Source: an uncultured Gemmatimonadales bacterium
Lineage (GTDB): Bacteria; Gemmatimonadota; Gemmatimonadetes; Gemmatimonadales; GWC2-71-9
DNA length: 64,000 nt
Direction: 5' to 3'
Assembly (NCBI GenBank): GCA_963821525.1
Contig: CAWGED010000005.1
Span: forward strand, 352,001 to 416,000
Part shown: piece by piece, positions 8,905 to 27,714 of the stretch
How positions within the stretch are numbered: the stretch's first letter is position 1
How the letters are laid out: each line of letters begins with the position of its first letter
The notes under the pieces: model-generated
Told to the model about the DNA's origin: nothing
The model's input: only the letters and a program-made list of their open reading frames with translations
Databases searched by the model: none
Translations under genes and position numbers: made by a program

Positions 8905-9889
8905 CAGAACCACGTCGCCCCGAGCGCGACCACGACGCCCACATGGATCAGCACGGCCACGAGCGCTGTGATGGCAAACGGTCGGTGGGCCACATGCCAG
9001 TAGCGAAAGAGCCGTTGCGTCACCCCGAGCATCCGGGCTTGCTGAGTGAGAGCCATTTCCCGGTTGGCCAGGCGAAGCACGGTTCGAGAGTGCTCGTCGG
9101 TCCAGGCGCCGGGCAGTGCCGTTCCTTGCCTCCACTCTGTCGTCGCAGGACTCGGGCGGCTCGGCGACGGTCAAGGTCATCCTTCAGCATCAGGCCGACG
9201 CTGCGAACCAGGCCGATCCCTTCAGTCGGGCTGGGGTCAGAGCGGAGGGTGCCCTCGATTTCCTCCCTCGTCAGTCCGGTTTCGGTCGCGATCTGCAGGA
9301 TGAGTTCGTTGCGTTGCGCCGCCGTCTCCTCGGCGCTCAGCTCGAGCCCGCTCTGTCCCCGCGGAATCCGCACGTACAGGTATCGGCCCGCGATGCCGCT
9401 GGCGCAGACCACGATCATCGAGAGGTATCCCAGCCCGATCAGTCCATCGAACCGCCAGCTGGCATGGATGGCGGCGATCAGAGGGAGCGCCAGACGCCAC
9501 CAGGACGTGGGCATCCATCCAGCGCGACATCGATCCGGTCCACGCCAGCCAGCGGTATTTCTTGCGGAAGGGATAGAGCCAGAGAACAGGAAGATGAGCA
9601 ATGCCAGGATGCCGGCGGATTGCCCGATATAGCCCGAGGGCCGCAGCCACGGATGCCATGGCGAACGCACTCGCTCCGCAGGTGCGGCGAGATAGTACGG
9701 AGCCCCGATGAGAGAGATCGCGACCAGGACCGCGAGGACCGCCGCCAGCCCTCGCGGTGTGGCCGGCTTCGTCGCGGCCCGTGGAGGATTCGTCTCACCG
9801 CCGACCGGGGAGGGAGGCGCTACCTTGGTGGTCACGGGACGAGGGCGGGTTGCCAGCTTGAGCGCCCCGGGACGGACTGTTCGTTTCAT
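8901..9889 (-). CDS. Polytopic membrane protein with His in TM segments (ferric-reductase/cytochrome-b-like; several indels)
   Basis: Joined frames give hydrophobic helices containing MDAHV, AAIHA, YWHVAH and LIHV, ending ALGATWFW*. Confidence 0.6.
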
Positions 9890-10070
9890 GAAGGCTCGTT
9901 CAAAATGTTGGTCGGTACGCCGCGTGCATTACTGCAAAGGAGAAACCGTGGGGATGGAGCGAGGGTTGCTGGTGTAACAGATGATGCCACATAGAATTGC
10001 CGCGCAGCTCCAAGGCTGCTAACGGCTCCGCGAGTGCTACGCGTTGATCCACCTGTAACGAGTCGTTGCA

Positions 10071-11409
10071 ATGCTTGCTTATTTGACATTATTGGCGATC
10101 CTCGCTTTCACGATTGTCGCCCAGGTTCGGCGTATGCACCGTCGCGACCGCGAGGCTCGAGCTGCGGCATCCCGCGGCGGCCTGGTCACGGAAGGACCCC
10201 GGGCACAACATCCGCACATCGACGTGGATCACTGCATAGGCTGTGGTGCGTGCGTTGATGCTTGCCCGGAGGGAGACGTACTCGCCGTCATCGGCGGGAA
10301 AGCCGCGATCGCCAAAGGACACAAATGCATCGGTCACGGGCTCTGCGCCGAGGCTTGCCCGGTCGGCGCGATCGAGATCGTCATGGCCGCGGCGAGCATC
10401 AGCGCAGATCTGCCGCAACTCAGCGCCGACTATGAAACCAACGTTCCCGGGTCTCTTCATCGCCGGAGAGCTGGGCGGACTTGCCCTGATCAAGAACGCG
10501 ATCAATCAGGGTCGTGACTGCGTGGACACGATCGCCCGGCGGGTGGCCCAGACCCGCGGACCTCGCTCAGTCGAGGTTCACGACGTCTGCATTGTCGGAG
10601 CCGGTCCGGGAGGGATCAGCGCTTCGCTCCGCGCCATTGAGCGCAAGCTCTCGTATGTCACGCTGGAACAGGACGAATTGGGCGGGACGGTAGCCAAGTA
10701 CCCTCGACAGAAACTGGTCCTGACGAGCCCGGTCGAATTGCCGCTCTATGGGAAGTTCAAGAAACTCGAGATCTCGAAAGAGGACCTGCTGGAGGTGTGG
10801 GCGGAGCTCTCGGACAAGGTGGGGTTGGTCGTCAACACTCGGGAGCGGGTGGACCACCTGATTCGAGAGCCGGACGGCACCTTCCGCATCGAGACCTCGA
10901 ACGGACGCTATCGGGCCCGCCACGTGATCCTGGCCCTGGGTCGCCGGGGCACGCCCCGCAAACTTGGTGTTCCCGGCGAGGAACTCTCCCATGTCATGTA
11001 CAGCCTGATCGATGCGGAGGCGTATACCGACAAGAGGATTCTGGTGGTGGGTGGAGGTGACAGCGCGGTGGAGGCCGCTATGGGTCTGGCTCACCAGCGA
11101 GGAAACCGCGTCGTCGTCTCCTATCGGGCTGCGGAGTTCACGCGGCTCAAGGAGCGGAATGCGCGAGGCCTGCAGGAAGCCGTGAAATCAGGCCGACTCG
11201 AGGTAGTGCTGAATTCCCTGCCGACCGAGATCAGCAGCGAAGCGGTGCTGCTTCGGATCGGCGAGGGTACTCGCCGGATCTCAGCCGATTATGTATGGAT
11301 CTTCATAGGGGGCACGCCCCCCAATCACTTCCTGGAAAAGGCCGGGGTCATCCTTGGGGCACGGGACCTGACCGCCGAGGCGGCGGCAGAGGCATTGCGG
11401 GTCGCCTGA
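10071..11409 (+). CDS. Membrane-anchored 2x[4Fe-4S] ferredoxin fused to a thioredoxin-reductase-like FAD/NAD(P)-binding domain (indel near 10450)
   Basis: N-terminal TM; CIGCGACVDACP and CIGHGLCAEACP; IVGAGPGG; ILALGRRGTPRKLGVPGE; VVGGGDSA. Confidence 0.85.
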
Positions 11410-11465
11410 CGCGCTGCGAAGGCTCCGCTCGCGGAGTATATTGGACGCAGCAATCACGTGGAGTC

Positions 11466-11891
11466 ATGATGAAACCGGGACACAAATTCCTACTGGGCGC
11501 CGCCATCATCGTTGGCGCCGTTGCCTTGCTGATGATCGAAGGGGTCAAGGAGTTTGGTCAGTATTCCCTCACACCGACCGAACTTGCCGCCAAGACGGCC
11601 GCCGATTCCTCGTTCTACAACCTCGGCCTGAAGATGAACGCCAAAGTGGTTCCCGGAACGATCAAGCGGGACCCGGCGTCTCAGACCATCGATTTCGAGG
11701 TGACCGACGGCAGTCACACCTATCCTGTGAGTTATCACGGGCTGGCGCCCGACACCTTCACCGACCAGCAGGATATCGAAGTGGTCGTCGAGGGCCGGCT
11801 GGGGCGGGATGGGGTGTTCCGCGCCACGACACTGCTGGCCAAGTGCGGCTCGCGCTACTCCGGCAAGTACGCGGAGGGAAAGAAGGTGTAG
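11466..11891 (+). CDS. ccmE: Cytochrome c maturation heme chaperone CcmE (CxxxY type)
   Basis: N-terminal TM, V.Y.G..PDTF, VVVEGRL, LLAKCGSRY. Confidence 0.85.
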   Translation: MMKPGHKFLLGAAIIVGAVALLMIEGVKEFGQYSLTPTELAAKTAADSSFYNLGLKMNAKVVPGTIKRDPASQTIDFEVTDGSHTYPVSYHGLAPDTFTDQQDIEVVVEGRLGRDGVFRATTLLAKCGSRYSGKYAEGKKV

Positions 11892-11965: not shown

Positions 11966-12277
11966 GGGGAGTGACTCTCGAGCCTGCCGAGCCCACGCGG
12001 CCACTGAGCCGCAGCCGCATGAGGAAAACTTCATCCCTCATTCCGGGTCCTTTTAGCGCCCGTCCCCCAACGTAGCCCAACCCCGTTGAGTTCGCGGGAT
12101 CACCCTCGGCCACGGCTGTCGTGACGTGTCAAACAGCTCCGCCGGTCATTGTCGGACCCCTTCGCAGAGGCACTCATGGTGCGAGAGTGCCAGGCTTGCT
12201 GGCTTCACGCCAGTCCCCCCACGGGCGGAGCCCACGGGCGCGCCGGGTCGCCAATCCTCTCTTACCCGCGACTACCT

Positions 12278-14623
12278 ATGAGACGGGTCGACCGTAGGAC
12301 GTTCCTCAAGAGGCTTGGGGTCGTTTCAGCGGCCACCGCCGCCGCTGGCGCCGTTCCCGGCATGGTGTTCCCCACGGGTGGTATCCTCCCGCACGGCGCC
12401 CAAACCGGCCCAGTCTGGAAGAAGACACCGTGCCGCCTTTGCGGCGTCGGCTGCGGATTACTGATAGCGATCGAGAACGGACGCGCAGTGGCCGTAAAGG
12501 GCGACCCTGACTCCCCGGTGAGCAAAGGGCTGGCCTGTGTGAAGGGCTATAACTCCGTGCAGGCGCTCTACGGGCGGGACCGGCTCGCGCACGCCATGGT
12601 CCGGCGCGACGGTGGGCTGGTGGAGGCTTCCCTCAACGAGACGTTCGACCTGGTGGCGCGCAGGCTCCGCGAGACCGTCGAGAAGCACGGCAAGAACAGC
12701 GTCGCCATCTACGGCTCGGCCCAGTGGACCATCCCGGATGCCTACATCGCGTCGAAGCTGTTCAAGGGAGCGCTGGGAACCAACAACGTGGAGACCAGCT
12801 CGCGCCTTTACGCCGGAAGCGCGATGGCCGGCCTCCAGAGCAGCTTCGGCCTCGACGGTGGGATCGGCTGCTACGAGGACATCGACCACGCCGACGTCTT
12901 CGTGTTGTGGGACGTCAATCTGGCGGAAACCGATCCGGTTCTCTTCTCTCGCATGCTGGACCGCCGGCGGGTGAACCCCGCCGTCCGGATCATCGAGGTC
13001 GCAACCCGCACCACGCGCACCAGTTACGCCGTCGACCAGTCTCTGCTGCACGCGCCGCATGCCGCGGCGGCGATCGCCAACGGCATCTGCAACGAAATCG
13101 TGGCCCGCAAATGGGTGCAGCAGGAGTTCGTCGCCCAGCACGTCGCCTTCAAACGGGGGAGGGCGAACATAGGTGACGGTCTGGCCGACGACCCTCTGGT
13201 TACGGAAGACGCCACCGACAGCACTTGGAGAGAGTACGTAGCGTTTCTCGCGGACTACGAGCCGGAGCGAGCCCAGGAATTGTCCGGCGTTTCGGCGGCG
13301 AGCATTCGCTGGCTGGCGTCCCTCTACGGCGACCCGCTGCGCAAGGTGATGTCGGTCTGGGGCCGAGAGGTGAACCAGGACGTGCGCGGCACCTGGATGA
13401 ACAACCTGCTCTACAACATCCATCTGCTGGTGGGGAAGGTCGCCTCGCCAGGGAATAGCCCCTTCGCCACCACGGGCCAGCCGAGCGGCGGGAGCGCGGT
13501 GAACGACGCGGGCAGCTTGACGCACACTCTGCCGCGCGGGGTGGTACAGAACGAAGAGGATCGCCGCCGGGCGTCGGAGATCTGGGGCGTCCCGGTGGAC
13601 AGGATCGATGCCCAGCCGACCGCCCCTTTGCTGGCAATGTTCCGCCAGCTGGAACGGGGCGACATCCGCTTTCTCTGGATCCTGGCCACCGATCCGATGG
13701 TCAGCCTGCCGAATTTGGACCGTTATCGTCAGGCGGCAACCAAGGGCGACCGCTTCATCGTGGTCTCGGAGGCGTATCCGACTCCTACGACGGATGTGGC
13801 GGACGTCGTCCTCCCCGCGGCGATGTGGCTTGAGCGCGAGGGGATCTACGCGAACGTCGAGCGCCGGGCGCAGCACTTCGAGCGGATGGTAGCGCCTCCC
13901 GGTGAGGCCACCGGCGACGCTTGGCAGATGATCGAGGTCGCCCGCCGTCTCGGCTTCGAGAAGCTGTTCCCCTACCAGCCGGGTGGCCACGTCGAGCAGA
14001 TCTGGGAGGAGTACCGCCGCTTTCATCAGGAACCGCAAGACGCGCTGCCCGCCACCTCCGAGCTCCGCGCGAACTCCGGCGTGATGTGGCCTTACGTGGG
14101 CGGCCGCGAGACGCGGTGGCGCTACAACTCCGCTTACGATCCGGCGGCCGATGGCACCCACGGCGCCTTCGATTTCTACGGCCATGCGGACCATCGTGCC
14201 TGGATCTGGCTCAGACCCTACGAGCCTCCGGCGGAGTTTCCAGGCGGCGAGTATCCATTCTGGCTCACGACGGGCGCCGTACTCGAGCATTGGGGTGCGG
14301 GCTCGATGACCCAACGCATTCCGACGTTGCATCACGCGCTCCCTCATGCCTACGTCGAGGTCAATCGCGAGGACGCAAGCGATCTGGGCATTCGGAACCG
14401 CGAGACCATCCGCCTGGTGAGCCGCCGCGGCTCGATCGAGCTCGAGGCCCGCATCGACTATCGTTCCCAACCGCCGCGTGGGCAGGTCTTTGTTCCGTCG
14501 TTCGACGAGGCGCGGCCGGTGAATCGGCTCACGCTCGATGCGTGCTGTCCGCTATCGGGCCAGCCCGATTCCAGCAAGTGTGCGGTTCGGGTGGAGCGAC
14601 TGACGCCGCGGAGCGGCACATGA
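12278..14623 (+). CDS. Tat-exported NapA-like (DMSO-reductase superfamily) subunit with a divergent active site
   Basis: DRRTFLK Tat motif; CRLCGVGC...CVKG FeS motif; GSAQWT, YNIHLLVGK, TGQPS, MWLEREG...NVERR, KCAV are colinear with NapA; the Mo-ligand position reads RLY. Confidence 0.85.
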   Translation: MRRVDRRTFLKRLGVVSAATAAAGAVPGMVFPTGGILPHGAQTGPVWKKTPCRLCGVGCGLLIAIENGRAVAVKGDPDSPVSKGLACVKGYNSVQALYGRDRLAHAMVRRDGGLVEASLNETFDLVARRLRETVEKHGKNSVAIYGSAQWTIPDAYIASKLFKGALGTNNVETSSRLYAGSAMAGLQSSFGLDGGIGCYEDIDHADVFVLWDVNLAETDPVLFSRMLDRRRVNPAVRIIEVATRTTRTSYAVDQSLLHAPHAAAAIANGICNEIVARKWVQQEFVAQHVAFKRGRANIGDGLADDPLVTEDATDSTWREYVAFLADYEPERAQELSGVSAASIRWLASLYGDPLRKVMSVWGREVNQDVRGTWMNNLLYNIHLLVGKVASPGNSPFATTGQPSGGSAVNDAGSLTHTLPRGVVQNEEDRRRASEIWGVPVDRIDAQPTAPLLAMFRQLERGDIRFLWILATDPMVSLPNLDRYRQAATKGDRFIVVSEAYPTPTTDVADVVLPAAMWLEREGIYANVERRAQHFERMVAPPGEATGDAWQMIEVARRLGFEKLFPYQPGGHVEQIWEEYRRFHQEPQDALPATSELRANSGVMWPYVGGRETRWRYNSAYDPAADGTHGAFDFYGHADHRAWIWLRPYEPPAEFPGGEYPFWLTTGAVLEHWGAGSMTQRIPTLHHALPHAYVEVNREDASDLGIRNRETIRLVSRRGSIELEARIDYRSQPPRGQVFVPSFDEARPVNRLTLDACCPLSGQPDSSKCAVRVERLTPRSGT

Positions 14624-15438
14624 GCTCCCCCGACCGGCACCCGGCCGCACTCGTCTTGGGCCTGTTCATGGTCGGCTCGGCCGTCACCGCCGCGGCCGCG
14701 TTGAGCGTCGCGGTGAAACGTGCTGCCGCCGGTCGGGAGCCGGTGCCCGCCCCCATCGCCGTCAAGATGGTGGCGCCACCCGATGAGCCGATCCGCGCCG
14801 AGGCGCAGGTGTTCCGCACAACTCCCGCCATCCTGGCGATCGAGCCCTCTGCCCGCCGGGAACGGTCGGCTCACCCGCGCACACTGAAGACGGTTCGCTT
14901 CCTGCGCGCCTTTCCGGGAGCCCCACCGCGGATTCCCCACGCCCTCACGCCTGAGGAATTCCGCACCGACGCCTGCAAGACCTGCCACGAGCGAGGTGGC
15001 TTCTCGCAGCGGTTTGACGCCTACGTGCCAGTGACGCCGCATCCCGAGCGGGGCATCTGTCTCCAGTGCCACGCGGGCGAGGACTCGCTCATGGGAGTGG
15101 CGATTCCCATCGCAAACCCGAACGCGAGGTGTCCGCAGTGCCACGGTCCGAGCGGTGGCCCCCCACGCGCAGATGCTACACTGACCTGGCCCACGACGGT
15201 TTGGCCGCAGGTGCCGCGGACAACGCCCGACCAAGATCCCCCCCCGATTCCGCACAGTCTGCAGTTCAGGGAGAATTGCCTCACCTGCCATTCCGGGCCT
15301 TCCGCCGTCGCTGAAATCCGGACCAAACACCCGGAGCGGGTCAACTGCCGTCAGTGCCATGTCGCGCTCGATCCGGAGGCGGAGCCGTTCGCCCGCCTGC
15401 CGCAGGACGTCGCTGCCGGGGACGGGAGTACGCCATGA
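14620..15438 (+). CDS. NapB-like cytochrome c with two PPxIPH modules, 5 CxxCH
   Basis: N-terminal hydrophobic segment; GAPPRIPH and DPPPIPH; CKTCH, CLQCH, CPQCH, CLTCH, CRQCH. Confidence 0.8.
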   Translation: MSSPDRHPAALVLGLFMVGSAVTAAAALSVAVKRAAAGREPVPAPIAVKMVAPPDEPIRAEAQVFRTTPAILAIEPSARRERSAHPRTLKTVRFLRAFPGAPPRIPHALTPEEFRTDACKTCHERGGFSQRFDAYVPVTPHPERGICLQCHAGEDSLMGVAIPIANPNARCPQCHGPSGGPPRADATLTWPTTVWPQVPRTTPDQDPPPIPHSLQFRENCLTCHSGPSAVAEIRTKHPERVNCRQCHVALDPEAEPFARLPQDVAAGDGSTP

Positions 15439-16157
15439 GCCGGACCCGGGTTGCGACCGCGGTCGGGTGCCTCGCGGCAGCATGGCTGACGTCTGCCTGT
15501 CGCGAACGAGCCCATGCGGTGTGGGACGTCCCACCGCCCGGGGCGGTCAGCCAGGTCGACTCTGCGACGGCCGCCCTGAACGCGACTCTGGAGCCCGGCG
15601 TACTGGCAACGGTGCAGGCGGTGCCGGTCCAACGCTGGAAGGGACCGGGCAACGAGCCATTCGAAGTCGCGCTCCGCAGCGCGACTCCGGAGGCGGGACA
15701 CTCCCGAATGTTCGGCTCCATCACGCTGCCGATCGCGCTGCGTAGCCGGGCGGCGGCCATGAGTCAGTACCCCTGCACGTCATGCCACCAGGGCCGGAAG
15801 GTGGTCATGGCCAACAAGCGCATCAGCGACGCTCACAACAACATCAAGCCGGTGCACCCGGACCAGACCGGCGCCGTCTGCTCCACCTGCCACTCGGCCG
15901 ACGACGTCGAGCTGCTCACGCTCAAGAGCGGCGAGCACGCCACCCTGGACGAGAGCTATCGGCTGTGTGCGCAGTGCCACTTCGAGCAGGCGAAGGCGTG
16001 GGCCGGCGGCGGGCATGGGAAACGACTCGACGGCTGGGAGGGACGGCGGGTGGTCATGGCCTGCGCCGATTGCCACGACCCACACAATCCCGCTGTCCAG
16101 ACCCGCATCCCCTTCCGCGCGCCGGAACTCGAGCGAACCAGGAGCGCCGGCCCATGA
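15435..16157 (+). CDS. Tetraheme cytochrome c, probable lipoprotein
   Basis: LTSAC lipobox-like motif; CTSCH, CSTCH, CAQCH, CADCH. Confidence 0.8.
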   Translation: MSRTRVATAVGCLAAAWLTSACRERAHAVWDVPPPGAVSQVDSATAALNATLEPGVLATVQAVPVQRWKGPGNEPFEVALRSATPEAGHSRMFGSITLPIALRSRAAAMSQYPCTSCHQGRKVVMANKRISDAHNNIKPVHPDQTGAVCSTCHSADDVELLTLKSGEHATLDESYRLCAQCHFEQAKAWAGGGHGKRLDGWEGRRVVMACADCHDPHNPAVQTRIPFRAPELERTRSAGP

Positions 16158-17128
16158 GCGATGACGGCACCCCCCAGATGCCGGAGCGCGCCGACGGCAC
16201 CGTGCTGCAGAAGCGGGTCGATCGGCGGGAAGCGCTGGGCCTCCTGGTTGGCGGCCTGGCCGCCGGCGCTGCCGCGGTGGGCGCGTGTACCCCGCTCACC
16301 GCGGCGACGCCCGAGGAGCGCGAGCTCAAGCTCTTAGCCTGGCGGGAGTACATCAAGGGCAATTACCACTTCATGACGGAGGAGGAGCGGGCGGAGACGA
16401 TCGCTCGTCTCGAGCGCCTCGCGAAGCTGCAGCGCGGCGTGGACGTGACTATCCAGTCCACCGGGGCACAGCCCGGCGTGATGTTCGGCTACGCCTTCAA
16501 TATTTCGAAGTGCAAGGGGTTCCGGAACTGCGTCGAGGCCTGCATCAACGAGAACAATCTCGATCGGCGGGCGGCGACGCAGTACATCCGCATCTTCGAG
16601 ATGGAGGACGGCGAAGTCGACCTCGACCTCGCCGATGCGACCTTCCAGCACGAGGTGCCGGCCGAGGGCCACTTCTATCTCGGGACCCAGTGCTTCCAGT
16701 GCGCCGATCCCCCGTGTGTGAAGGTCTGCCCGGTGGGCGCCACCTGGCAGGAACCGGATGGCATCACGGTCATCGACTACGACTGGTGCATTGGGTGCCG
16801 CTATTGCATGGCCGCCTGTCCCTACTGGGCGCGGCGCTTCAACTGGAGCCAGCCGGAGGTCCCCCAAGAGGAAGTGAACCCCAACCAGCACTACCTGGGC
16901 AACCGCGCGCGCAAGAAGGGCGTGGTCGAGAAGTGCACCTTCTGCATCCACCGGACCCGGCAGGGCCGGTTGCCGGCCTGCGCCGAGGCCTGTCCCACAG
17001 GGGCGCGGGTCTTCGGCAACCTGCTGGATCCCGACTCCGAGATCCGCTGGGTGCTGGCGAACAAGCGAATTTTCCGGCTGAAGGAAGAACTGAAGACGGA
17101 GCCGCGTTTCTGGTACTTCACCGACTGA
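16154..17128 (+). CDS. NrfC/PsrB/DsrO-like iron-sulfur subunit, copy 1
   Basis: DRREALG twin-arginine-like leader; CKGFRNCVEAC, CFQCADPPCVKVCP, CIGCRYCMAACPY, KCTFC...PACAEACP. Confidence 0.9.
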   Translation: MSDDGTPQMPERADGTVLQKRVDRREALGLLVGGLAAGAAAVGACTPLTAATPEERELKLLAWREYIKGNYHFMTEEERAETIARLERLAKLQRGVDVTIQSTGAQPGVMFGYAFNISKCKGFRNCVEACINENNLDRRAATQYIRIFEMEDGEVDLDLADATFQHEVPAEGHFYLGTQCFQCADPPCVKVCPVGATWQEPDGITVIDYDWCIGCRYCMAACPYWARRFNWSQPEVPQEEVNPNQHYLGNRARKKGVVEKCTFCIHRTRQGRLPACAEACPTGARVFGNLLDPDSEIRWVLANKRIFRLKEELKTEPRFWYFTD

Positions 17129-17135
17129 GGCGACC

Positions 17136-18430
17136 GTGCACCTGAAGCCATTCCTGCTCACAGCCCTAGACTCGGCGACCACCGGGGGCCGGCGCTACCA
17201 CCTCTGGATGGGGAGCCTGACGGCGATCATCCTCGTCGGGGCGTACGCGTATTCCCTCCAGCTGCGCTACGGACTCGGCGTCACGGGAATGAGCGATCAG
17301 GTGAGCTGGGGTCTTTACATCTCGAACTTCACCTTTCTCGTCGGCATGGCCGCGGCCGCCATGATGCTGGTGCTGCCGGCGTACATCCTGGACGACGTGG
17401 ACTTCGGCCGCGCGGTGCTGATGGCGGAAGGCGGTCGCCGTGGCGGCGCTGGTCATGTGCCCTCGGGTTCGTGGTGGTGGACATCGGCAACCCATTCGCC
17501 GGGTGGCACCTCGTGCCCGGCATCGGCTACCTGAACTGGCCGCGGTCGCTCCTGGCCTGGGACGTGATCGTGCTGAACGGGTACCTGGCGCTGAATCTGG
17601 CCATCCCGTTCTACATCCTCTACAGCCACTACTCCGGCCGTTCGCCGGCCAAGAACAAGTACCTCCCCTGGATGTACATCTCCGCCATGTGGGCGGTGAG
17701 CATTCACCTGGTCACGGCGTTCCTGCTGGCGGGCCTGCCCGCCCGGCCGTTCTGGAACACGGCGCTGCTGGGGCCCCGGTTCCTGGCCTCGGCCTTCACC
17801 GCGGGGCCGGCGTTCGTGCTCGCTGCTGCTCTGGTTCATCCGGCGGAAGACGAAGTACGCCATTGCCGATGGCGCCTTCTCGAAGCTCGCGCTGATCGCT
17901 GTCGCCGCGGCGCAGATCAACCTCGTGATGCTCATCTCCGAGCTGTTCTACGAGTTCTACTCGCCCACCCATCACGGCATCAACGCGCGGTATCTCTTCT
18001 TCGGCCTCGGCGGGCACCACGCCCTGGTGCCCTGGATCTGGACGGGGATCGGGCTGAATGTCCTGCGCGACCGTCGCCCTCATGATCCACCCGCTGCGGC
18101 GCAAATCCGCGCTGGCTGATGCCGGCCTGCGCCACGCTGTTCGTGGGCATCTGGATCGAGAAGGGGATCGGCCTGGTGATCCCCGGCTTCATTCCCTCGC
18201 CGCTGGGCGAGATCGTCGAGTACACGCCCACCTGGGTCGAGCTGTGCGTGACCGCCGGCATCTGGGCCCTGGGCCTGTTCGTGCTGACCGTCCTGGTGCG
18301 GGTGGCGCTGCCGATCGAGCTGGGGGATGTGCGCAGTCCGTACCTGGCGCAGGCGCCCGCCGCGCGGGCAGTCCGCCCGCGCGCGACCCGGGCGCGGCAC
18401 GAGGACGTCCGGCCAGTCCGGACCCGATGA
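17136..18430 (+). CDS. NrfD/PsrC/DsrP-like quinone-interacting membrane subunit, copy 1 (indels)
   Basis: GVTGMSDQVSWGLYISNFTFLVG, DIGNP, SLLAWDVIVL, HLVTAFL, EKGIGLVIPGF, EYTPTWVE. Confidence 0.85.
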
Positions 18431-18481
18431 TCCGACGCTGGGCACTCCGCCGGCCGACTTTACTTCCACGAGGTGATGGAC

Positions 18482-19361
18482 ATGACCAGACACTAGGCCA
18501 AACGACACCCGATACTCCTTCGCCGCGCTCGCCGCGGGGCTGGTCGGGGCGGCCGGGCTGGCCGGCGGGCTGTTCCTCGCGGGGGTCGCGCCGCCGCTGG
18601 CCGCGGTGGCGGGCCTGGGATTGGGGCTGCTCCTCGCCGCCTCGATCAAGTACACCGACCAGTGGGAGAAGGCGGTCCTCCTGCGGCTCGGCCGCTACCG
18701 GGGCCTGCGAGGTCCCGGGTACTTCGCCATCGTGCCGATCCTCGATCGGGTGGCCTACACCATCGACCAGCGGATCCGGACCACGGCGTTCGGCGCCGAA
18801 TCGTGCCTGACCCGCGACACGGTGCCGGTCAACGTCGACGCCATCGCCTTCTGGATCGTGCGCGACGCCGAGCGCGCCGCGCTGGAGGTGCAGGACTACG
18901 ACGAGGCGGTCATCCTCTCGGCGCAGACCGCGCTGCGGGACGCCATCGGGAAGCACGATCTCGCGGAGCTGATCCAGTCCCGGGTGGAACTGGGCCACGG
19001 ACTCAAGGTGGCGCTGGAGCAGAAGATGGCGAACTGGGGGATCCAGGTGCAGTCGGTGGAGATCCGGGACGTCATCATCCCGGCCGCGCTCGAGGACGCC
19101 ATGTCGCGCCAGGCCCAGGCCGAGCGGGAGCGCCAGGCCCGCATCATCCTGGGCACTGCGGAAACCGAGATCGCCCACAAGTTCGTCGAGGCCGCGGCCG
19201 CCTACCGCGACCACCCCGAAGCCATGAACCTGCGGGCCATGAACATGCTCTACGAGAGCATCGTCAAGCGCGGCTCGCTCATGGTGGTGCCCTCAGGCCT
19301 GGCCGACTCCCTGAACGTCCCATCCCTGATGGGCGTGTCAGGGGCACCGAAGAGCCTGTAA
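18482..19361 (+). CDS. SPFH/stomatin (slipin) family protein, copy 1 (5' indels, shorter C-terminus)
   Basis: QWEKAVLLRLG, LTRDTVPVNVDA, AQTALRDAIG, SVEIRDV, QAQAERERQARII. Confidence 0.85.
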
Positions 19362-19440
19362 CCCGGAAGGGAGGCGCAGGACCCCAGATGCACAACTGCC
19401 CCTTCCGCCCTGAACTGGAGCGTACCAGGAGCCACGGCCC

Positions 19441-20420
19441 ATGAGTGACAACCGCATCCCCGAGATGCCCGAGAGCGCCGACGACGGCACCGTGCTGCAG
19501 AAGCGGGTCGATCGCCGGGATGCGCTGGGCCTCCTGCTCGGCGGCCTGGCCGCCGGCGCTGCCGCGGTGGCCGCGTGTACCCCGCTCACCGCGGCGACGC
19601 CCGAGGAGCGCGAGCTCAAACTGCTCGAATGGGAACAGTTCACCCAGAAGCACTATCGCCGGATGACCGAGGAGGAGCGCGCAGAGACCATCCAGCGGCT
19701 CGAGCGCCTCGCCAAGCTGCTCCATAACCAGGACGTCACCATCGCCACTACCAATGCATTGCCGGGAGTCCTCTTCGGCTACGCCTTCAACATCTCGAAG
19801 TGCAAGGGCTACCGGCGCTGCGTCGAGGCCTGCATCAACGAGAACAACCTGGACCGCAAAGCGGACACGCAGTACATCCGGATCTTCGAGAACGGAACAC
19901 GGCGTGGTCAATCTCAACGATGCCGATGCGACCTATCCAACACGAGGTGCCGGCCGAGGGCCACTTCTACCTCGGGACCCAGTGCTTCCAGTGCGCCAAC
20001 CCGCCCTGCGTCCCGGTCTGCCCGGTGGGCGCCACCTGGCAGGAGCCCGATGGCATCGTGGTGATCGACTACAACTGGTGCGTCGGATGCCGGGCCTGCA
20101 TGGCCGCTTGCCCCTACTGGGCGCGGCGCTTCAACTGGGACGTGCCCGAGGTGCCCAACGAGGAAGTGAACCCCAATCAACACTACCTCGGGAATCGTGC
20201 CCGCAAACAGGGATGCGTCGAGAAGTGCACCTTCTGCATCCACCGGACCCGGCAGGGCCGGTTGCCGGCCTGCGTCGAGGCCTGTCCCACCGGGGCGCGG
20301 GTCTTCGGCAACCTGTTGGATCCCGATTCCGAGATTCGTTGGGTGCTCGCAAACAAGCAGGTCTTCCGTCTGAAGGAAGAGCTCGCGACGGAACCGCGCT
20401 TCTGGTACTTCATCGACTGA
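19441..20420 (+). CDS. NrfC/PsrB/DsrO-like iron-sulfur subunit, copy 2 (indels near 19890-19940)
   Basis: Same Cys motifs as copy 1 (CKGYRRCVEAC ... CVGCRACMAACPY). Confidence 0.85.
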
Positions 20421-20427
20421 GGCGACC

Positions 20428-21721
20428 GTGCATCTACGAGCCTTCCTGTTGAGCGCGCTGCGCTCCGTGACCTCCGGCGATCGCCGCTACCATCTCTGGA
20501 TGGGGAGCCTGACGGCGATCATGCTGGTCGGGGGCTATGCCTACCTCGTCCAGGCCACCCACGGGCTCGTCGTCACGGGGATGAACGACCATGTGAGTTG
20601 GGGACTGTACATCTCCAACATGGCGTTCCTCGTGGGGGTGGCGGCCGCGGCGGTGATCCTGGTGATGCCGGCGTATGTCCTGCAGGACGTCGACTTCAGC
20701 CAGGCCGTCCTCATCGCCGAGGGGGTCGCGGTGTCCGCCCTGGTCATGTGCCTCAGCTTCGTCACGGCCAACAGTCCGGGCTTTCCCTGGAAGTGGTGGC
20801 GCCTCACGCCGGTCATCGGACTGCTAAACTGGCCCAGCTCGATGCTGGCATGGGACGTCATTGCCCTGAACGGCTACCTGGTGCTCAACCTCACCATCCC
20901 GTTCTACATCCTCTACAGCCACTTCACCGGACGCGAGCCGGAGAAGAAGAAGTACGTGCCGTTCATTTACCTCTCGGTCGTCTGGGCGGTGAGCATTCAC
21001 CTGATTACCGCGTTTCTTTCGCGGCCCCACCGTCCCGCCCCCTGTGGAACTCGCCGCTGCTTGGGCCCCGCTTCCTGGCCTCGGCCTTCACGGCCGGCCC
21101 CGCGTTCATGATCCTGTTGCTCGGGTTTATCCGGTCGACCAGCCAAGTACCCCATTTCGGACATGGCCATCTCGAAACTGGCCACCGCCACCACCGTGGC
21201 GGCGCAGATCAATCTCGTGATGCTCTTTTCCGAGCTGGTTTACGAGTTCTACTTTCCCACGCATCACAGCATCAGCGCGCGATATCTCTTCTTCGGCCTC
21301 GGCGAGCATCATGCGCTGGTGCCGTGGATCAGGACCGCGGATCACCCTCAACGTCGTGGCGACGTGGTCGCTCATGATCCACCCGCTGCGGCGTAACCCG
21401 CGCTGGCTGATGCCGGCCTGCGCCACGCTGTTCGTCGGCATCTGGGTCGAGAAGGGGATCGGCCTGGTGATCCCGGGCTTCATTCCCTCGCCGCTGGGCG
21501 AGATCGTCGAGTACACCCCCACCTGGGTCGAGCTGTGCGTGACCGCCGGCATCTGGGCCTTGGGCCTGTTCGTCCTGACCGTCCTGGTGCGGGTGGCGCT
21601 TCCGATCGAGCTGGGGCATGTGCGCAGTCCCTATCTGGAGCAGGGGCCCGCCCCGCGGGCAGTCCGCCCGCGCGCGACCCGGGTGCGGCACGAGGACGTC
21701 CGGCCGGTCCGGACCCGATGA
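20428..21721 (+). CDS. NrfD/PsrC/DsrP-like membrane subunit, copy 2 (indels)
   Basis: VTGMNDHVSWGLYISNMAFLVG; C-terminal part almost identical to copy 1. Confidence 0.85.
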
Positions 21722-21763
21722 TACGACGCTGGGCACTCCGCCAGCCGACTTTACTTCCACGAG

Positions 21764-22753
21764 GTGATGGCCATGACCAGACATAGAGCAAACGACACCC
21801 GGTACTCCTTCGCCGCGCTCGCCGCGGGGCTGGTGGGGGCGGCCGGGCTGGCCGGCGGACTGTTCCTCGCGGGGATCGCGCCGCCGCTGGCCGCGGTGGC
21901 GGGCCTGGGACTGGGGGTGCTCCTCGCCGCCGCGATCAAGTACACCGACCAGTGGGAGAAGGCGGTCCTCCTGCGGCTGGGCCGCTATCGGGGCCTGCGA
22001 GGTCCCGGGTACTTCGCCGTCGTCCCGATCCTCGATCGGGTGGCGTACACCATCGACCAGCGGATCCGGACCACGGCGTTCGGCGCCGAATCCTGCCTGA
22101 CCCGCGACACGGTGCCGGTGAACGTCGACGCCATCGCGTTCTGGATCGTGCGCGACGCCGAGCGCGCCGCGCTGGAGGTGCAGGACTACGACGAGGCGGT
22201 CGTCCTCTCGGCGCAGACCGCGCTGCGGGACGCCATCGGGAAGCACGATCTCGCGGAGCTGATCCAGTCCCGGGTGGAGCTGGGCCACGGGCTCAAGGTG
22301 GCGCTGGAACAGAAGATGGCGAATTGGGGGATCCAGGTGCAGTCGGTCGAGATCCGCGACGTCATCATCCCGGCCGCGCTCGAGGATGCCATGTCGCGCC
22401 AGGCCCAGGCCGAACGGGAACGCCAGGCCCGCATCATCCTGGGCACGGCGGAAACCGAGATCGCCCACAAGTTCGTCGAGGCCGCGGACGCCTACCGCGA
22501 CCACCCCGCAGCCATGAACCTGCGCGCGATGAACATGCTCTACGAGAGCATCGTCAAGCGCGGCTCGCTCATGGTGGTGCCGTCAGGCCTGGCCGACTCG
22601 CTGAACGTCCCATCCCTGATGGGCGTGATGGGTGCCACCGGACTGCTGCCGCGGGATGGCGAGGCCAAGGCACCGGTGATGGGAGGTGGGGCGGCCACGG
22701 TCGCGCCTGGGGCGCCTGCCCCCAGCGCGGCGGAAACCGGGAAGGCGCACTAG
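21764..22753 (+). CDS. SPFH/stomatin (slipin) family protein, copy 2
   Basis: Intact ORF with the same SPFH motifs as copy 1. Confidence 0.9.
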   Translation: MMAMTRHRANDTRYSFAALAAGLVGAAGLAGGLFLAGIAPPLAAVAGLGLGVLLAAAIKYTDQWEKAVLLRLGRYRGLRGPGYFAVVPILDRVAYTIDQRIRTTAFGAESCLTRDTVPVNVDAIAFWIVRDAERAALEVQDYDEAVVLSAQTALRDAIGKHDLAELIQSRVELGHGLKVALEQKMANWGIQVQSVEIRDVIIPAALEDAMSRQAQAERERQARIILGTAETEIAHKFVEAADAYRDHPAAMNLRAMNMLYESIVKRGSLMVVPSGLADSLNVPSLMGVMGATGLLPRDGEAKAPVMGGGAATVAPGAPAPSAAETGKAH

Positions 22754-24193
22754 CAGATCCTCCCCTGCGTTTGACTGCTCCGGAATAGTATTCCCATGGC
22801 AGGCGGCGCAGGTCTGGGGGTTCTTGCGCTTCATCCGCTCGGCATCGAACCCCGGCCCGTGCGGATTGAAGCTGCGGCCGCTCTGGGCCGAGTGACACGC
22901 CAGGCAGTCCCGCTCGGAGTGGCAGGCGACGCAGGTCTCGATGTTCTGCCGTGCGGCGGTGCCGTGATTGAGGAGGAAGACACCGCTGGCGTCATGGTAT
23001 CCCGGCTGCAATTTGCCGGGCGACACCAGGCCGGCCTGCTGATGGCAGGTGACACAGAATGCGGCCTGATTGTGGCACTCCGCGCACTCGGCCTGCCGAT
23101 TGAAGGCGGCGGCGGGATGCCGGGTCAGGAATCCAGCCGGGTGGTAGTTGCCCGCTGCTCCTGCGTTCGGACGGTGGCATTCCAGGCACTCGGCGCGCTC
23201 GTGGCAGGCGCTGCAGGTGCCCGGCGATGAGCCGGCGAGCGGGCCATGCTTGTCCACGAAATCGGCCGAGTGGGATGCAGGCCGGCCCCGTTCGATGCGC
23301 GCACCGATCCCTCGTCCCGGTCCACTGGCCGGAAGCAGCAGGACCACGTTGGGCGGGGCGCGATGGCAGGCCATGCAGCTCTCCTGCGTGTGGCAAAAGG
23401 CGCAACTTCCCGGGTCCTTTTTGGCATTCCCCCCGTGCTGCGAGAGAAACCGGCCCTCCTGGTGGGAGGCCGGCGCCTCTAGCTCGGCCTTGATCGCCAG
23501 CGAGCGGGGATCAACTGCCAGAGCCTGGATCGCCTTGACTTCGGGCGCGTTGACGTGGCACTGAACGCAGAAGTCCCGCGCATGGCAGATGGAACAGCTC
23601 AGTGTGCTGCGCTCCGCCTGGTCGCCATGACCCTTGGAAGAGAGGAACGCCGTGTCATCGTGCGACGCGGGCTTCTCGAACTTCGCCACCCGCGCCTCCG
23701 GCAGGGCCGTTGCCTCAGCCAGCGGGAAATGGCAGGTGCCGCAAGCGGTGTCGGGGGCGGAGAAATGCGCCGTTCGGATCCCGTGGCAGTCGAGGCACTG
23801 GGCTGAAATGGTGCGCCGGACGGTCAACCAGCTAGCCCCCGAGGGGATGTGGCAGGCAGGGCAAGCGAGGGCGGAATCGGCCGGGAGCTTCTCGCCTGAC
23901 TCCCGCGCATGCTCGGCGTGGGTGAAGCGGAAGTTCGAGGGATGAGCCGGGGGTGGTGACCAGTCCACCTTCTTCTCGATCGAACCGTCATGGCAGACGG
24001 CGCAGGACTCCGGAGAGGGATAGACTGGGCGTCCAGTTTCGGTGATGCCGGCGTGACATCCCTGGCATTCCGGAAAGACCTTGCGGTGCTTCTCGTGGTC
24101 GAAGACGTCGCGGTCCTGGCGGAGCACTGCGCTGCCGAAGGCGCCGAGCAGGATCACGAGGCCCGCGGCAAGTGGGATGCTAGGGAGCCTCAT
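22583..24193 (-). CDS. Multiheme cytochrome c, 16 CxxCH (3' end uncertain)
   Basis: MRLPSIPLAAGLVILLGAFG signal; FDHEKH; 16 CxxCH with paired CxxCH-x4/5-CxxCH repeats; ORF runs into the convergent gene. Confidence 0.85.
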   Translation of the reverse strand: MRLPSIPLAAGLVILLGAFGSAVLRQDRDVFDHEKHRKVFPECQGCHAGITETGRPVYPSPESCAVCHDGSIEKKVDWSPPPAHPSNFRFTHAEHARESGEKLPADSALACPACHIPSGASWLTVRRTISAQCLDCHGIRTAHFSAPDTACGTCHFPLAEATALPEARVAKFEKPASHDDTAFLSSKGHGDQAERSTLSCSICHARDFCVQCHVNAPEVKAIQALAVDPRSLAIKAELEAPASHQEGRFLSQHGGNAKKDPGSCAFCHTQESCMACHRAPPNVVLLLPASGPGRGIGARIERGRPASHSADFVDKHGPLAGSSPGTCSACHERAECLECHRPNAGAAGNYHPAGFLTRHPAAAFNRQAECAECHNQAAFCVTCHQQAGLVSPGKLQPGYHDASGVFLLNHGTAARQNIETCVACHSERDCLACHSAQSGRSFNPHGPGFDAERMKRKNPQTCAACHGNTIPEQSNAGEDLLVRLPGFRRAGGRRPRRDRGRPTSHHRCLGLAIPRQQSGGTHHAHQGWDVQRVGQA

Positions 24194-25673
24194 CGCCGCC
24201 CTTCTCGCCGGACAGCGGGCGGGAGGGGCAGCCGGTCGGCGCTCGAGCCGAAGAGCCAAGAGAGGGTGGCGCTTACCCGAGTCTGGGACCAGTTGATGGT
24301 GGAGGCATCGGGCCGCTTGCGATCCTCGTCGTATCGGGTTGCCCCGAGGCCGAGGCGTAGGCGTTCGGTCGCTCGGAGATCGATGGAGAGACCATACCAG
24401 GTCAGCGCGGGGTCCTCTACCCGGTACTCGAGCGGTCGAACCAGGTGGCCTGCCTTGCGCCGTGAGAGTCATGGCGTGGGTCGGCCGCACGCTGAGGCTC
24501 CCATCCACGCCTTGGGAGGCAGCGCCGGGTCCGAATTCGGCCTGATAACCCCCGTCAATACTTACGGCTGAGGAGATGCTGTACCCCGCCCCCGCGTTCC
24601 AGCGCCAGCCTTCGGTTTCCTCTGTGAGCAGCGGTGTTTCCGCTTCGGCGTCCGCGTACCAGTAACGCTCCCCGCCACCGCGGAGCGTCAGGCCGCGCAC
24701 CGGTGACACCCACAGCGAGCCGTTTACGGCGGAGTACGGCACCGGACTGAACACGCCCCAGAGGCTCCAGAGGTCGAAGTAGGGACGGTAGCGCCTGATG
24801 CCTACTGCCCCGCCGAACCGCGTCTGGCTGTGGCGGAGGGTCAGGTCCGCGTTGCCCCACCAGCCCCAGGCGAGATCGTAGTCGGCGCCCCCGGTGAGGC
24901 TCCAGCCGGTGAGGGGACGAATGGTCGCCGAAAGGGCCATCCGCTCCGAAACGAAGTTCCGAGTGTCCCGGTCGACCTCGCGCTCATAGTCCAAGCCGCG
25001 CGTCCACCGTGCGGCTCTGCCATTCGACGGCGCCCCCGGCAAGGAGCTGCCGTGACGGGGGCTGGAAGTCGTCCAGGGGGTTCAGCGCGTCACTGGTCAC
25101 GGGGAGGGCGCTGCCCCTCGCCAATCCAAGACCCACATAGCCGATCGCGGTCAGCCCTTGCTTCGGGAAGCGATAGGCCAGGCGACCTCCGTCGTAACCG
25201 TAGTACCCGAGGCGCCCGCGCTCGATCTGCCGTCCGAGTCGTGCGGTGAAGCGATCCGCGGCGTACTCGCCGTACCCCTCCACCAACTGCACGGCGGGAT
25301 CGGTCCCCGGCCAGACGTCAGAGCTGCTGAGATCCGCGCCGACCCGGGCATTGGCATGCAGGCTGAGGCCGTGCACGCCGAAACCCCAGGCCGTGAGGTC
25401 GGCGCTGGTCATGAACGGGCCGCCATGGAGGATCGGGCCCGCGCGGAAGAAGTAGCAGTAGGTTAGCCCGGTGCAGCTGACAGCGTAGCCGTCCGGAGTC
25501 TCGGGGCCGCCGCTGGGGCCGGTCACGACCTGACCGGCCAGGATGCTGTCTTTTTGGACGCCCCGATACGAAACGCTTTGTACTCGCGAATCGAGCCGGA
25601 CCAGGTATTCTTGCGCCCTCCCTACGGCAGGGGCCGCGAGCAGCAGCAGGGCCCATCCCAGCCCGGCTTTCAT
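24190..25673 (-). CDS. Putative outer-membrane beta-barrel (porin; indels near 24990 and 24455)
   Basis: Signal MKAGLGWALLLLAAPAVGRA; ARLGRQ...YDGGRL and many amphipathic strands; ATGA overlaps with both flanking cytochrome genes. Confidence 0.7.
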
Positions 25674-27633
25674 CCCGCCTTCGCTGGCTTGAGGAGCCGT
25701 GACCGGTACTGACCGGGCTCGGCCTGCAGGTGACAGGTTGTGCACTCCCGCTCGGGATGGTGATCCACGTCGGCGTCGTGGCAGGCCAGGCAGAAGGACC
25801 GGGTGGGCGACAAGGGTGCGATGGCGGCGGTCGCATGGCAGGCGTCGCAGGCGATGTGCACGCGCACCGGCTGGGCGTGGGGCTCCCGGATCGTCGCGGT
25901 CCGGTGGCACCACGCACAGTCGCGCCCGCTCGGCATGGTGCTTGTCGTGGCAGCCCTCGCAGGTGGTGACCGAGTCTGCCGGATGGAGAGTGACTTGTTC
26001 GGAGTGGCAGTCGGTGCACTTGATATCAGAGTGCTTCTCGTGCGGGAAGCCCACAGGCCGATGACGCGCCGGCTTGCCGGCGGCCGCGATAGAGACATCC
26101 ACCTCGACGGTCGAAGGCATCTCGCCCGCCTCATGGCAGGACGTGCAGTCGCTACGCTGGGGGGCCTGGTGGTGGCAGATCTGGCAGCCACGCGGCGGTG
26201 CGAAGGTGAGCTTTTGCGCCGGACCTGCTGAGGTGGCAGGTGAGGCACGGCAGCTTCTGATGTATGGGATGTGAAAATGTATCGCTCTGCGAGGCGGGGA
26301 GGGCGTTGAGCGCCTTCCTCGGGGGATCATCCCCAGGCAGCGCGTCACCTTTCCCTTTGCTGGGTCGCTCTGGTTTGACTGCGGGGGACTCAGGGGCCAG
26401 CGAGTGTTGGAGCGCCTTCAGGGTATCGAAGGGAAGCGGCGGCTGAATCTTCCCGCCCGGGTTGCGGGCCCGCACGGCCTCATGGCAACCGGTACAGTCA
26501 CTGGCGTCCACCCGAGCCGCGTGCGGCTGGTGGCACAGGGTACACTGTTCGACCTTCGCGCGGTGCGCGGCCCCGGTGTGGAACGGATTCTTGCGCCAGT
26601 CGGCATGGCAGGCCGCGTCGGTACAGGATTTCTTCGTCTCACCCTTGTTGAGCTGACTATGCGGGTTGTGGCACATGCCGCAGGTGCCGCGGTGTGGATC
26701 CTCACCCACCGAGAAGTTCGGCAGCAGCCCCTCCATCTGGTGGCAAGACAAGCACTGCTTGATGTTGGGCCGAAGGGCACCTGCCGCGGAGTCGCGGGTC
26801 GCGAGGGCCGCTACTTGCGTGGTGAACTTGTGGCAGACGATGCAGTGGAGATCCGTCTGATCAGCCATCTTGCCGAGCTTGATCCTGCTGTCCTCGGTGA
26901 GGTGGCACCCCTTCTGCACGCAGGTGCTGTCGGCCGGCATGAACCGGTGTGCCGTCCGGGCGTGACAGGTGAGACACTCCACCTTTCCCTTGAGCGCCGA
27001 GGAGTCCGACTCGAGGTGGGTCCGATGCCCCGCCGTAGCCGCTATCGCCTGCCAGGTCTCCTTTGCTGCACCCTGCACGTGGCATGCTTCGCAGGTCGTC
27101 CGCGGTACCTTGGCGTGGGGCGGGATCTCCTTGCCGCGTATGCCCGACATCCAGAAGATGAGCTTGACGGCCTCCTTCGTCGGGTTGAGCGGGTGGCAGG
27201 TATGGCAGCTGATGCTATCGTGCTTGCCTTCCAGCTTGGGGACGATGCTATAGAAGCCGGTGTCGGGTGGGCGACCGTCTGACCGCTGGGCACGAAGATG
27301 TGACAACCGTTGCAGAACCGCTTGTCGGTTTCGACGAACTGGTAGCTCTGGTACCCCATGCCAGCCGCCACCATGAGCGCGACCACCGCGCCCCCTGCCA
27401 GGGCGAGCTTGATACCGCCACTCCGGGTCCGAAGCCAAGTGAAGAACGCGACCCGGCGGGGCCAGAACCAGCGCAGGAAAAGGAAGGCCAACCCGCCCGC
27501 CAGCACCACGCCCCCCCACATGACCCACGGCGAGCGCTGGAACAGCCATTGGATGATGGGCGTTAGTCGGTCGCTCGGACGGCGCGTGTTGGCTGTCGAC
27601 CGGGAAGGCAAGGAAGGAAAGGTTGTGGAGCAT
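25670..27633 (-). CDS. Membrane-anchored multiheme cytochrome c, ~20 hemes, NapC/NirT-like N-terminus (indels; start uncertain)
   Basis: Two TM segments, then ETDKRFCNGCH...H...CHTCH; 18 CxxCH plus 2 CX4CH after joining frames. Confidence 0.8.
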
Positions 27634-27714
27634 GTCGGTATAGAAAATACCCGCCCCGGCAAAAGGAACATCGCCGGGGCGGGTGAGACTCCGCGTCACC
27701 AAGGCGCGCCCCAA

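Follow-up and report, generated by a model that had tools for sequence, protein, structure and literature searches.

The window analysed here is a 64,000-nucleotide stretch from an uncultured Gemmatimonadales bacterium (G000:C5:352001-416000; genome 81% complete, in 19 contigs). Its subject is an operon on the + strand related to those for periplasmic nitrate reductase (Nap), whose NapA-like protein has no molybdenum (Mo) ligand. Named homologues are from Gemmatimonadales. The first gene (12278..14623) encodes this NapA-derived protein of the MopB fold, here called NapX, which has 781 aa, a twin-arginine translocation (Tat) motif, RRTFL, and no frameshift. It is followed by a pentahaem cytochrome c (14620..15438; five CxxCH motifs and an N-terminal hydrophobic segment), a tetrahaem cytochrome c lipoprotein (15435..16157; four CxxCH motifs and a lipobox Cys), a DsrO/NrfC-like iron-sulphur (FeS) subunit of the Tat-lipoprotein kind (16154..17128; 15 cluster Cys), an NrfD/DsrP-like membrane subunit that keeps the quinol-site Asp and His (type 1; 17136..18430, where the assembly changes frame three or more times), and an SPFH/band-7 protein (18473..19361; a single frameshift near 18493). 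ATGA overlaps couple the first four genes. The parts named in an earlier reading of the DNA letters (the sequence-only reading) were all present on the + strand, and the gene order was found again at dozens of further loci, so it is not due to chance.

That reading did not mention a tandem duplication of the FeS-NrfD-SPFH segment (16109-19337 against 19399-22627; 86% nucleotide identity). The second 3.2-kb unit (19399..22627) opens with a remnant of the 3' end of the tetrahaem gene and encodes a second FeS subunit (19441..20420; one frameshift), a type-2 NrfD-like subunit with the quinol-site Asp replaced by Asn and the His by Arg (20428..21721; frameshifted in the assembly) and a second SPFH/band-7 protein (21764..22753), all on the + strand. 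The tandem arrangement was also present at four other loci (L033, L074, L087 and L122), and a single copy was found in a same-genus genome and in a near-identical metagenome contig; we regard the two copies as old paralogues. Frameshifts affect both NrfD copies, FeS copy 2, SPFH copy 1 and most of the flanking genes. The indels at 17433, 18065, 18105, 18493 and 21017 are missing from the contigs of relatives, whose genes are intact, and the frameshifts are therefore most likely assembly errors.

Descent from NapA and loss of the molybdenum ligand

The best matches of NapX among solved structures were all NapA, and NapAB (C. necator 3ML1, E. coli 2NYA and C. jejuni 9PXT) counts among the closest known systems. 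NapX scored below both NCBIfam cut-offs for NapA (744 against 904 for PRK13532, and 727 against 930.6 for TIGR01706), which its Cys-bearing relatives exceeded on PRK13532 (942-983) and approached or exceeded on TIGR01706 (924-947). The Mo-ligand motif R-H/L-C-M is R-L-Y-A in NapX, with Cys replaced by Tyr178 and Met by Ala179. The ligand Cys (Cys176 in C. jejuni) was found in none of the 120 best homologues, which share 73-94% identity, and in 0/153 aligned Cys-less sequences; the position is occupied by Tyr, Phe, His or Arg. Further substitutions were Gly to Asp212, Arg to Asn409, Arg to Ala667, His to Gly673 and Lys to Ser766. NapX retains the [4Fe-4S] motif (Cys52/55/59/87, CX2CX3CX27C), Lys89 and the Tat signal. 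The four cluster Cys are invariant across Cys-less sequences wherever aligned, and the Tat motif is present in 93 of the 99 full-length homologues. In NapA, the conserved Lys is described as sitting between the [4Fe-4S] cluster and the pterin (PMC12769810).

To quantify the loss, the 187 positions invariant in 34 canonical NapA were compared with the 153 Cys-less sequences: 137 persist in 90% or more of these, 31 are lost and 19 are intermediate. The lost positions cluster in windows of cofactor and active-site motifs, which were chosen with the help of NapA alignments and not from coordinates (19/67 against 12/120 elsewhere; Fisher p 0.002). AioA is reported to hold its Mo-bis(pyranopterin guanine dinucleotide) (Mo-bisPGD) cofactor without any protein ligand (PMC10100899), and loss of the Cys alone therefore proves little about Mo. 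Four further positions, Gly212, Gly364, Arg667 and Lys766, are kept by NapA, AioA, FdhF and NasA in an alignment with one AioA (T. thermophilus), two FdhF and one NasA, and all four are lost in NapX. We take their equivalents to be cofactor contacts. Among the substrate-channel residues given for C. jejuni NapA (R174, D191, E192, R463, R471 and H715; PMC12769810), four of six are changed in NapX (Gly194, Asn409, Thr417 and Asp588), and Arg176 and Asp193 are retained; positions 417 and 588 also vary among canonical NapA relatives. Collectively, we consider it likely that NapX binds no Mo. One homologue of 1050 aa, P0098, has an extra cytochrome domain; it may be NapX fused to the pentahaem or an artefact of gene calling.

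Selenocysteine was considered as a Mo ligand in NapA-family genes and rejected: where checked, the TGA flags lay at gene ends, and those genes have Cys. A formate dehydrogenase gene elsewhere in the genome (G000:C19:313000-315000, L163) has an in-frame TGA at the ligand position, probably selenocysteine, and is followed by NuoF- and NuoG-like genes.

The phylogeny placed the NapX family within NapA. In a 68-sequence tree, 33 of the 34 Cys-less sequences formed one clade (SH-aLRT 99) nested among canonical NapA, and the clade persisted when the motif columns were removed (support 95/99; 14 of 15 Cys-less sequences in a 27-sequence subset). The sequence from locus L103 adjoined the main Cys-less clade in the larger tree; with the motif columns removed, it joined canonical L102 (94/98). 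This disfavours a single origin, and it is more likely that the Cys was lost at least twice, the L103 loss being the second and younger. L103 itself, where napD and 20 of the 31 marker residues remain, probably represents an independent and recent change from Cys to Tyr; L102 retains 31 of these residues, L107 12 and the remaining loci 0-5.

The same operon with a canonical NapA does exist. Among the matches listed, it occurs in Gemmatimonadota, Flavobacteriaceae, Ignavibacteria and Flammeovirga, and in rearranged form in Verrucomicrobiota and Myxococcota; the Cys-bearing layout is napD-napA-cyt-cyt-FeS-nrfD, as in Flammeovirga kamogawensis NZ_CP076130 and Flagellimonas spp. By gene order and tree position, the operon is a nap operon by descent. 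Among 13 Cys-bearing Gemmatimonadota loci, 11 have a napD-like gene immediately ahead of napA, and one of the two exceptions begins at a contig edge; such a gene stands in this place at only 1 of 35 Cys-less loci. The count excludes four duplicate loci and the loci without the motif. Searches with Pfam and with a relative's NapD found no NapD in the window genome or in 14 Cys-less relatives, but these searches were insensitive (3/29 and 3/30) and overlooked it in the majority of genomes that have another canonical NapA.

Across 301 genomes of the phylum, 30 carried a NapA-family protein, of which 15 were Cys-less, five had the same operon with Cys and ten had another NapA type. No second canonical NapA was seen in the 15 Cys-less genomes, with three candidates scored per genome. 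A search of 1.84 billion proteins gave 136 matches covering the ligand position, 13 of them without Cys; seven belonged to this family and six were distant (23-31% identity). A second Gemmatimonadota nap layout was observed at L078-L084 (e.g., L078:11062-17332), with the order Rieske-cytochrome b-octahaem-napA (canonical)-tetrahaem, resembling the cluster described for Caldithrix (PMC5317091).

The ratio of nonsynonymous to synonymous substitutions (dN/dS; pairwise Nei-Gojobori, uncorrected for high-GC bias) was 0.13-0.20 in 13 of 14 Cys-less NapX pairs and 0.41 in one basal pair, and 0.02-0.24 in 12 scorable pairs of canonical NapA. On these values, NapX is under purifying selection and is not decaying. 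Moreover, a conserved 45-bp element with a TGA-N8-TCA-like core lies on the + strand 260 bp before the NapX start (12018..12062). A matrix trained on nine other loci scored 49.8 at this site, the next best site in the genome reaching 18.4. Scores were 19-54 upstream of 11 core Cys-less loci not used for training, the window among them, no more than 6.1 before all Cys-bearing loci, and low at the 10 Cys-less loci beyond the core clade that could be scored. The element is probably an operator or promoter. The genome contains only this one copy, so the element is no evidence for co-regulation with the flanking porin-cytochrome conduits; consensus patterns for sigma-54, FNR and Rex gave no consistent site upstream of the operon.

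The sequence-only reading was to be dropped if the operon with canonical NapA was a proven nitrate-respiration module and this copy silent. That operon was indeed found, but the Cys-less copy is not decaying, as judged from dN/dS and the conserved element. In full-text searches outside subscription journals, we found no publication proving nitrate respiration by the canonical-NapA operon and no phenotype for a Cys-bearing strain.

Redox partners and comparison with known complexes

The pentahaem protein consists of two NapB-like repeats and a middle haem. R. sphaeroides NapB matched it twice, both times weakly (E 7e-5 in each case), and the NapB profile matched the same-genus orthologue below cut-off (E 4e-4). 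The lipobox Cys of the tetrahaem protein is invariant (15/15 aligned), and that of the FeS subunit, already recognised in the sequence-only reading, was found in 51 of 61 sequences, seven being gapped there. The FeS subunit has 15 cluster Cys, with Phe or Tyr in place of one Cys in 54 of 61 sequences, a motif suggesting that it probably carries three [4Fe-4S] clusters and one [3Fe-4S] cluster. Copy 1 reached 193 bits on the DsrO profile (cut-off 200), and intact NrfD relatives from L033 and L058 passed the DsrP cut-off (362-394 against 350), the window copies being frameshifted.

The quinol-site Asp and His are invariant in all 44 type-1 NrfD sequences, and all 12 of type 2 have Asn and Arg. 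In the NrfD family, an Asp/His of the second transmembrane (TM) helix is reported to be needed for quinol (de)protonation (PMC8076601); from its position in the motif, the type-1 Asp would be this family-wide residue. Genomes carry type 1, type 2 or both in tandem. Type 2 was the sole copy found in G106, G043, G025 and G295, which makes a purely ActF-like role less likely. The two paralogues might determine which quinone is used or which way the electrons run. The tetrahaem-FeS-NrfD set also stands alone at L175, L176 and L179, where the stretches analysed gave no match to napA or the pentahaem gene, and is therefore an autonomous module.

The absence of napC, napD and napGH from the window, as first noted from the letters, was upheld: the 81%-complete genome gave no match to the NapD or NapC families, and its NapG/NapH profile matches were all below cut-off. 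One of these, a NapG/MauM-like ferredoxin at G000:C19:802500-803024, lies outside the window and is unlinked to the operon. NrfA was not found in the searches. Compared with NapAB and its Cys-bearing operon, the direct ancestor, the NapX operon has the fold, Tat signal, [4Fe-4S] motif, Lys, NapB-like partner and gene order in common, and lacks the Mo ligand, the catalytic Met and Arg, several cofactor-binding residues and napD. Where other Nap systems have NapC, NapGH or the Rieske/cytochrome b arrangement described for Caldithrix (PMC5317091), the quinol module of this operon would be tetrahaem-FeS-NrfD.

The sequence-only reading had likened the operon to a hybrid of Nap, alternative complex III (ACIII) and Qrc. 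The parts list does resemble the latter two, but the MopB subunit nests inside NapA, and FeS and NrfD fit best as DsrO/DsrP-like rather than as QrcC/D. The likeness to ACIII (ActABCDEF of R. marinus, as described in PMC5928083) lies in a cofactor-free MopB domain, a wire of one [3Fe-4S] and three [4Fe-4S] clusters, pentahaem and lipoprotein cytochromes and NrfD-family subunits; at some loci, the second NrfD with its altered quinol site recalls ActF. However, ActB fuses the MopB-like and FeS parts, which here are encoded apart, on either side of two cytochrome genes, and each NrfD copy has its own FeS gene, unlike the ActC/ActF pair. There is no ActD or ActE in the operon and no oxidase operon after it. 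NapX also derives from NapA and has its own [4Fe-4S] motif, whereas ActB is placed near ArrA (PMC10100899).

QrcABCD of Desulfovibrio likewise combines multihaem, MopB-like, [3Fe-4S]-containing FeS and NrfD subunits as four separate genes (PMC8076601, Table 1), but the Qrc profiles stayed far below cut-off on the operon (QrcB 68/440, QrcC 154/400, QrcD at most 55/570). A better Qrc match is a separate, frameshifted Qrc/ACIII-like cluster in the same genome (G000:C19:167000-171500, L164), with QrcB- and QrcC-like proteins, NrfD and a cytochrome c. Among DsrMKJOP and NrfBCD systems, FeS and NrfD scored best as DsrO/DsrP, but dsrM, dsrK and the trihaem dsrJ are absent from the operon at all loci examined, and true dsr clusters of other Gemmatimonadota share about 37-44% identity with the operon FeS and NrfD. 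Such dsrMKJOP-like clusters were seen at L174, L177, L181 and L182, three adjoining dsrAB-like ORFs, as assigned by gene order, with DsrO/DsrP profiled at L177 only. In contrast to AioA and IdrA, NapX has four FeS Cys and no [3Fe-4S] N-terminus, and the operon has no Rieske gene; AioA was found in 0 of 151 genomes. On these sequence relationships, the resemblance to ACIII and Qrc is convergence from a nap operon. The operon falls outside ACIII and Qrc in tests of membership though it would work like them, and it descends from Nap yet fails the tests for NapA.

Flanking conduits and neighbourhood

Two clusters on the - strand flank the operon, each a putative porin-cytochrome conduit in which cytochromes of 16-23 haems, above the threshold of 10 taken for such conduits, lie beside a predicted beta-barrel. 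Cluster A (4073..9922) encodes a 5-TM protein, 23-haem and 16-haem cytochromes and a barrel whose porin look-alikes scored 0.85-0.86, which we treat as a lead. Cluster B (22778..29406) encodes an 8-haem lipoprotein, a membrane-anchored 18-haem cytochrome, a barrel with porin-family look-alikes at 0.92-0.93 and a weak Pfam match, and a 16-haem cytochrome; it is frameshifted in the window and intact in L049/L058. In the neighbourhood survey suggested by the sequence-only reading, 14 Cys-less relatives were compared: 13 have the conduit-B porin within 16 kb of the NapX gene, and the remaining one has cluster A next to it. The layouts vary, conduit B being upstream and divergent, downstream and convergent, or co-directional (L071, L096).

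Directly upstream of the operon, a frameshifted ferredoxin-thioredoxin-reductase-like fusion and ccmE occupy 10071..11891 (+ strand). The membrane-anchored fusion and a 5-TM protein (10071-11409) are conserved between cluster A and the operon and are a possible cytoplasmic redox link. Adjoining the conduits, the region 30236-51835 holds a V/A-type ATPase, a [NiFe] hydrogenase with cytochrome b, hyp genes and ccm genes; L061 and L063 are also flanked by ATPase or hydrogenase genes.

Proposed role and alternative readings

We propose, with a probability of roughly one half, that NapX is a Mo-free, NapA-derived scaffold in a quinone:cytochrome module wired to the adjacent porin-cytochrome conduits. 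The operon would encode a periplasm-facing, membrane-anchored quinone:cytochrome oxidoreductase that arose from a nitrate-respiration operon. By homology, electrons in the ancestor would have passed from quinol to NrfD, the FeS wire, the tetrahaem, the NapB-like pentahaem, the [4Fe-4S] cluster of NapA, Mo and finally nitrate. With the Mo site gone in the Cys-less clade, the NapA fold would still be exported by Tat with its [4Fe-4S] cluster, and NapX could cap the haem wire structurally or buffer its electrons, in the manner of the B1 domain of ActB, which has no cofactor. The haems would be the exit, or the entry, for electrons, with the neighbouring multihaem-porin conduits as the most likely path, and the uptake-type hydrogenase with cytochrome b in the window could supply quinol. 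The sequence-only reading had also arrived at an oxidoreductase linked to the conduits; this is the most likely reading, the link itself being drawn from gene neighbourhood. More tentatively, and with some doubt, an ACIII/Qrc-like complex may have been re-invented here: a nap operon would first have become linked to a conduit, its NapA would then have lost the Mo site stepwise, and the remaining cofactor-free scaffold would serve a new pathway by which common soil Gemmatimonadota move electrons from quinone to the cell surface.

Several observations weigh against the proposed Mo-free, conduit-linked module. The genome search for molybdenum cofactor (Moco) genes, advised at the outset alongside the one for napD, found moaC in 28 of 29 and moeA in 28 of 29 of these genomes, so the gene content gives no support to an absence of Mo; as a test of Mo-independence it was uninformative, the Sec-type formate dehydrogenase accounting for the Moco genes of the window genome. 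Polar residues are newly fixed in the core clade (D212, D219, H258, H261, D368, H409 and D410, at 88-98%). One relative of the 18-haem protein has a weakly NapC/NirT-like N-terminus (E 2.4e-4, below cut-off), and this conduit subunit may have its own NapC-like anchor. Of the 301 genomes, 132 have the conduit-B porin, most of them lacking the operon, and about 21 have the operon's NrfD, so the conduit can do without the module. Loci with intact NapA are linked to a conduit too (G037, G237, L102, L105 and L111); among the five intact-NapA genomes with the operon, two are linked, two are undecidable at contig edges and one is unlinked, which fits a linkage that arose before the Mo site was lost. 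Because all Cys-less loci but one form a single clade, the co-location was inherited once and is not a statistical association.

Some of these points would suit a Mo-free hub that has different partners in the periplasm as electron sinks (NosZ, haem-copper oxidases or NO reductase, soluble cytochromes) or that serves redox balancing, the conduits being adjacent merely as part of a cytochrome c gene island. NosZ lies about 80 kb away, the genome has several COX1-family genes, ccm, hydrogenase and V/A-ATPase genes cluster in the window too, and most conduit-bearing genomes lack the operon; however, conduit B adjoins the operon in several arrangements, suggesting selection for linkage, and we regard such a hub as rather unlikely. 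Less probable still is a re-purposed NapX, an enzyme or sensor for another substrate in which newly fixed Tyr, His or Asp residues form a site for a new metal or ligand or hold a single pterin. The 41 positions newly fixed at 93% or more, the high frequency of Y178, H258, H261, H409 and D410 in the core clade, the retained Lys89 and the reported function of AioA and IdrA without a protein ligand (PMC10100899) would agree with it. Yet no new residue is invariant, the window has Asn409, and seven basal Cys-less sequences vary freely; moreover, the residues that AioA keeps are lost, and neither an AioA-type [3Fe-4S] N-terminus nor a Rieske partner is present.

It is very improbable that NapX is still a nitrate reductase, even a poor one. 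NapA gives the best PDB and NCBIfam matches, JGI assigns a nitrate-reductase name to 61 of the 120 homologues, and the C176D variant of C. jejuni NapA is reported to retain some activity (PMC12769810), but here the ligand position holds Tyr, Phe, His or Arg, the Met, Arg and cofactor motifs are lost, and both profile scores are short of those of the Cys-bearing relatives. We give similarly little credence to a decaying or silent nap operon, to which the frameshifts in NrfD, FeS and SPFH and the dN/dS of the one basal pair might point: the frameshifts hit most nearby genes and do not occur in relatives, the NapX gene is uninterrupted and of full length, with purifying selection acting on it in several families, and the upstream element specific to the operon is conserved.

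No description of a Cys-less NapA or of a NapX operon was found in full-text searches outside subscription journals. A survey of the MopB superfamily, in which sequences were screened for the correct ligand, reports three independent losses of Mo/W-bisPGD, in FhcB, Nqo3 and ActB (PMC10100899). A NapA-derived loss would add a further and recent one, with living intermediates, and the origin and purpose of cofactor-free subunits such as ActB-B1 and QrcB would become directly testable through the NapX family. Gene surveys probably miscount the NapX operon as nitrate respiration, and with the disarmed form in 15 of the 30 NapA-family genomes of this phylum sample and nitrate-reductase names given by JGI to about half of the 120 homologues, the nitrate-reduction potential of Gemmatimonadota may be overcounted. 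The operon would also offer a candidate route for extracellular electron transfer in this phylum.

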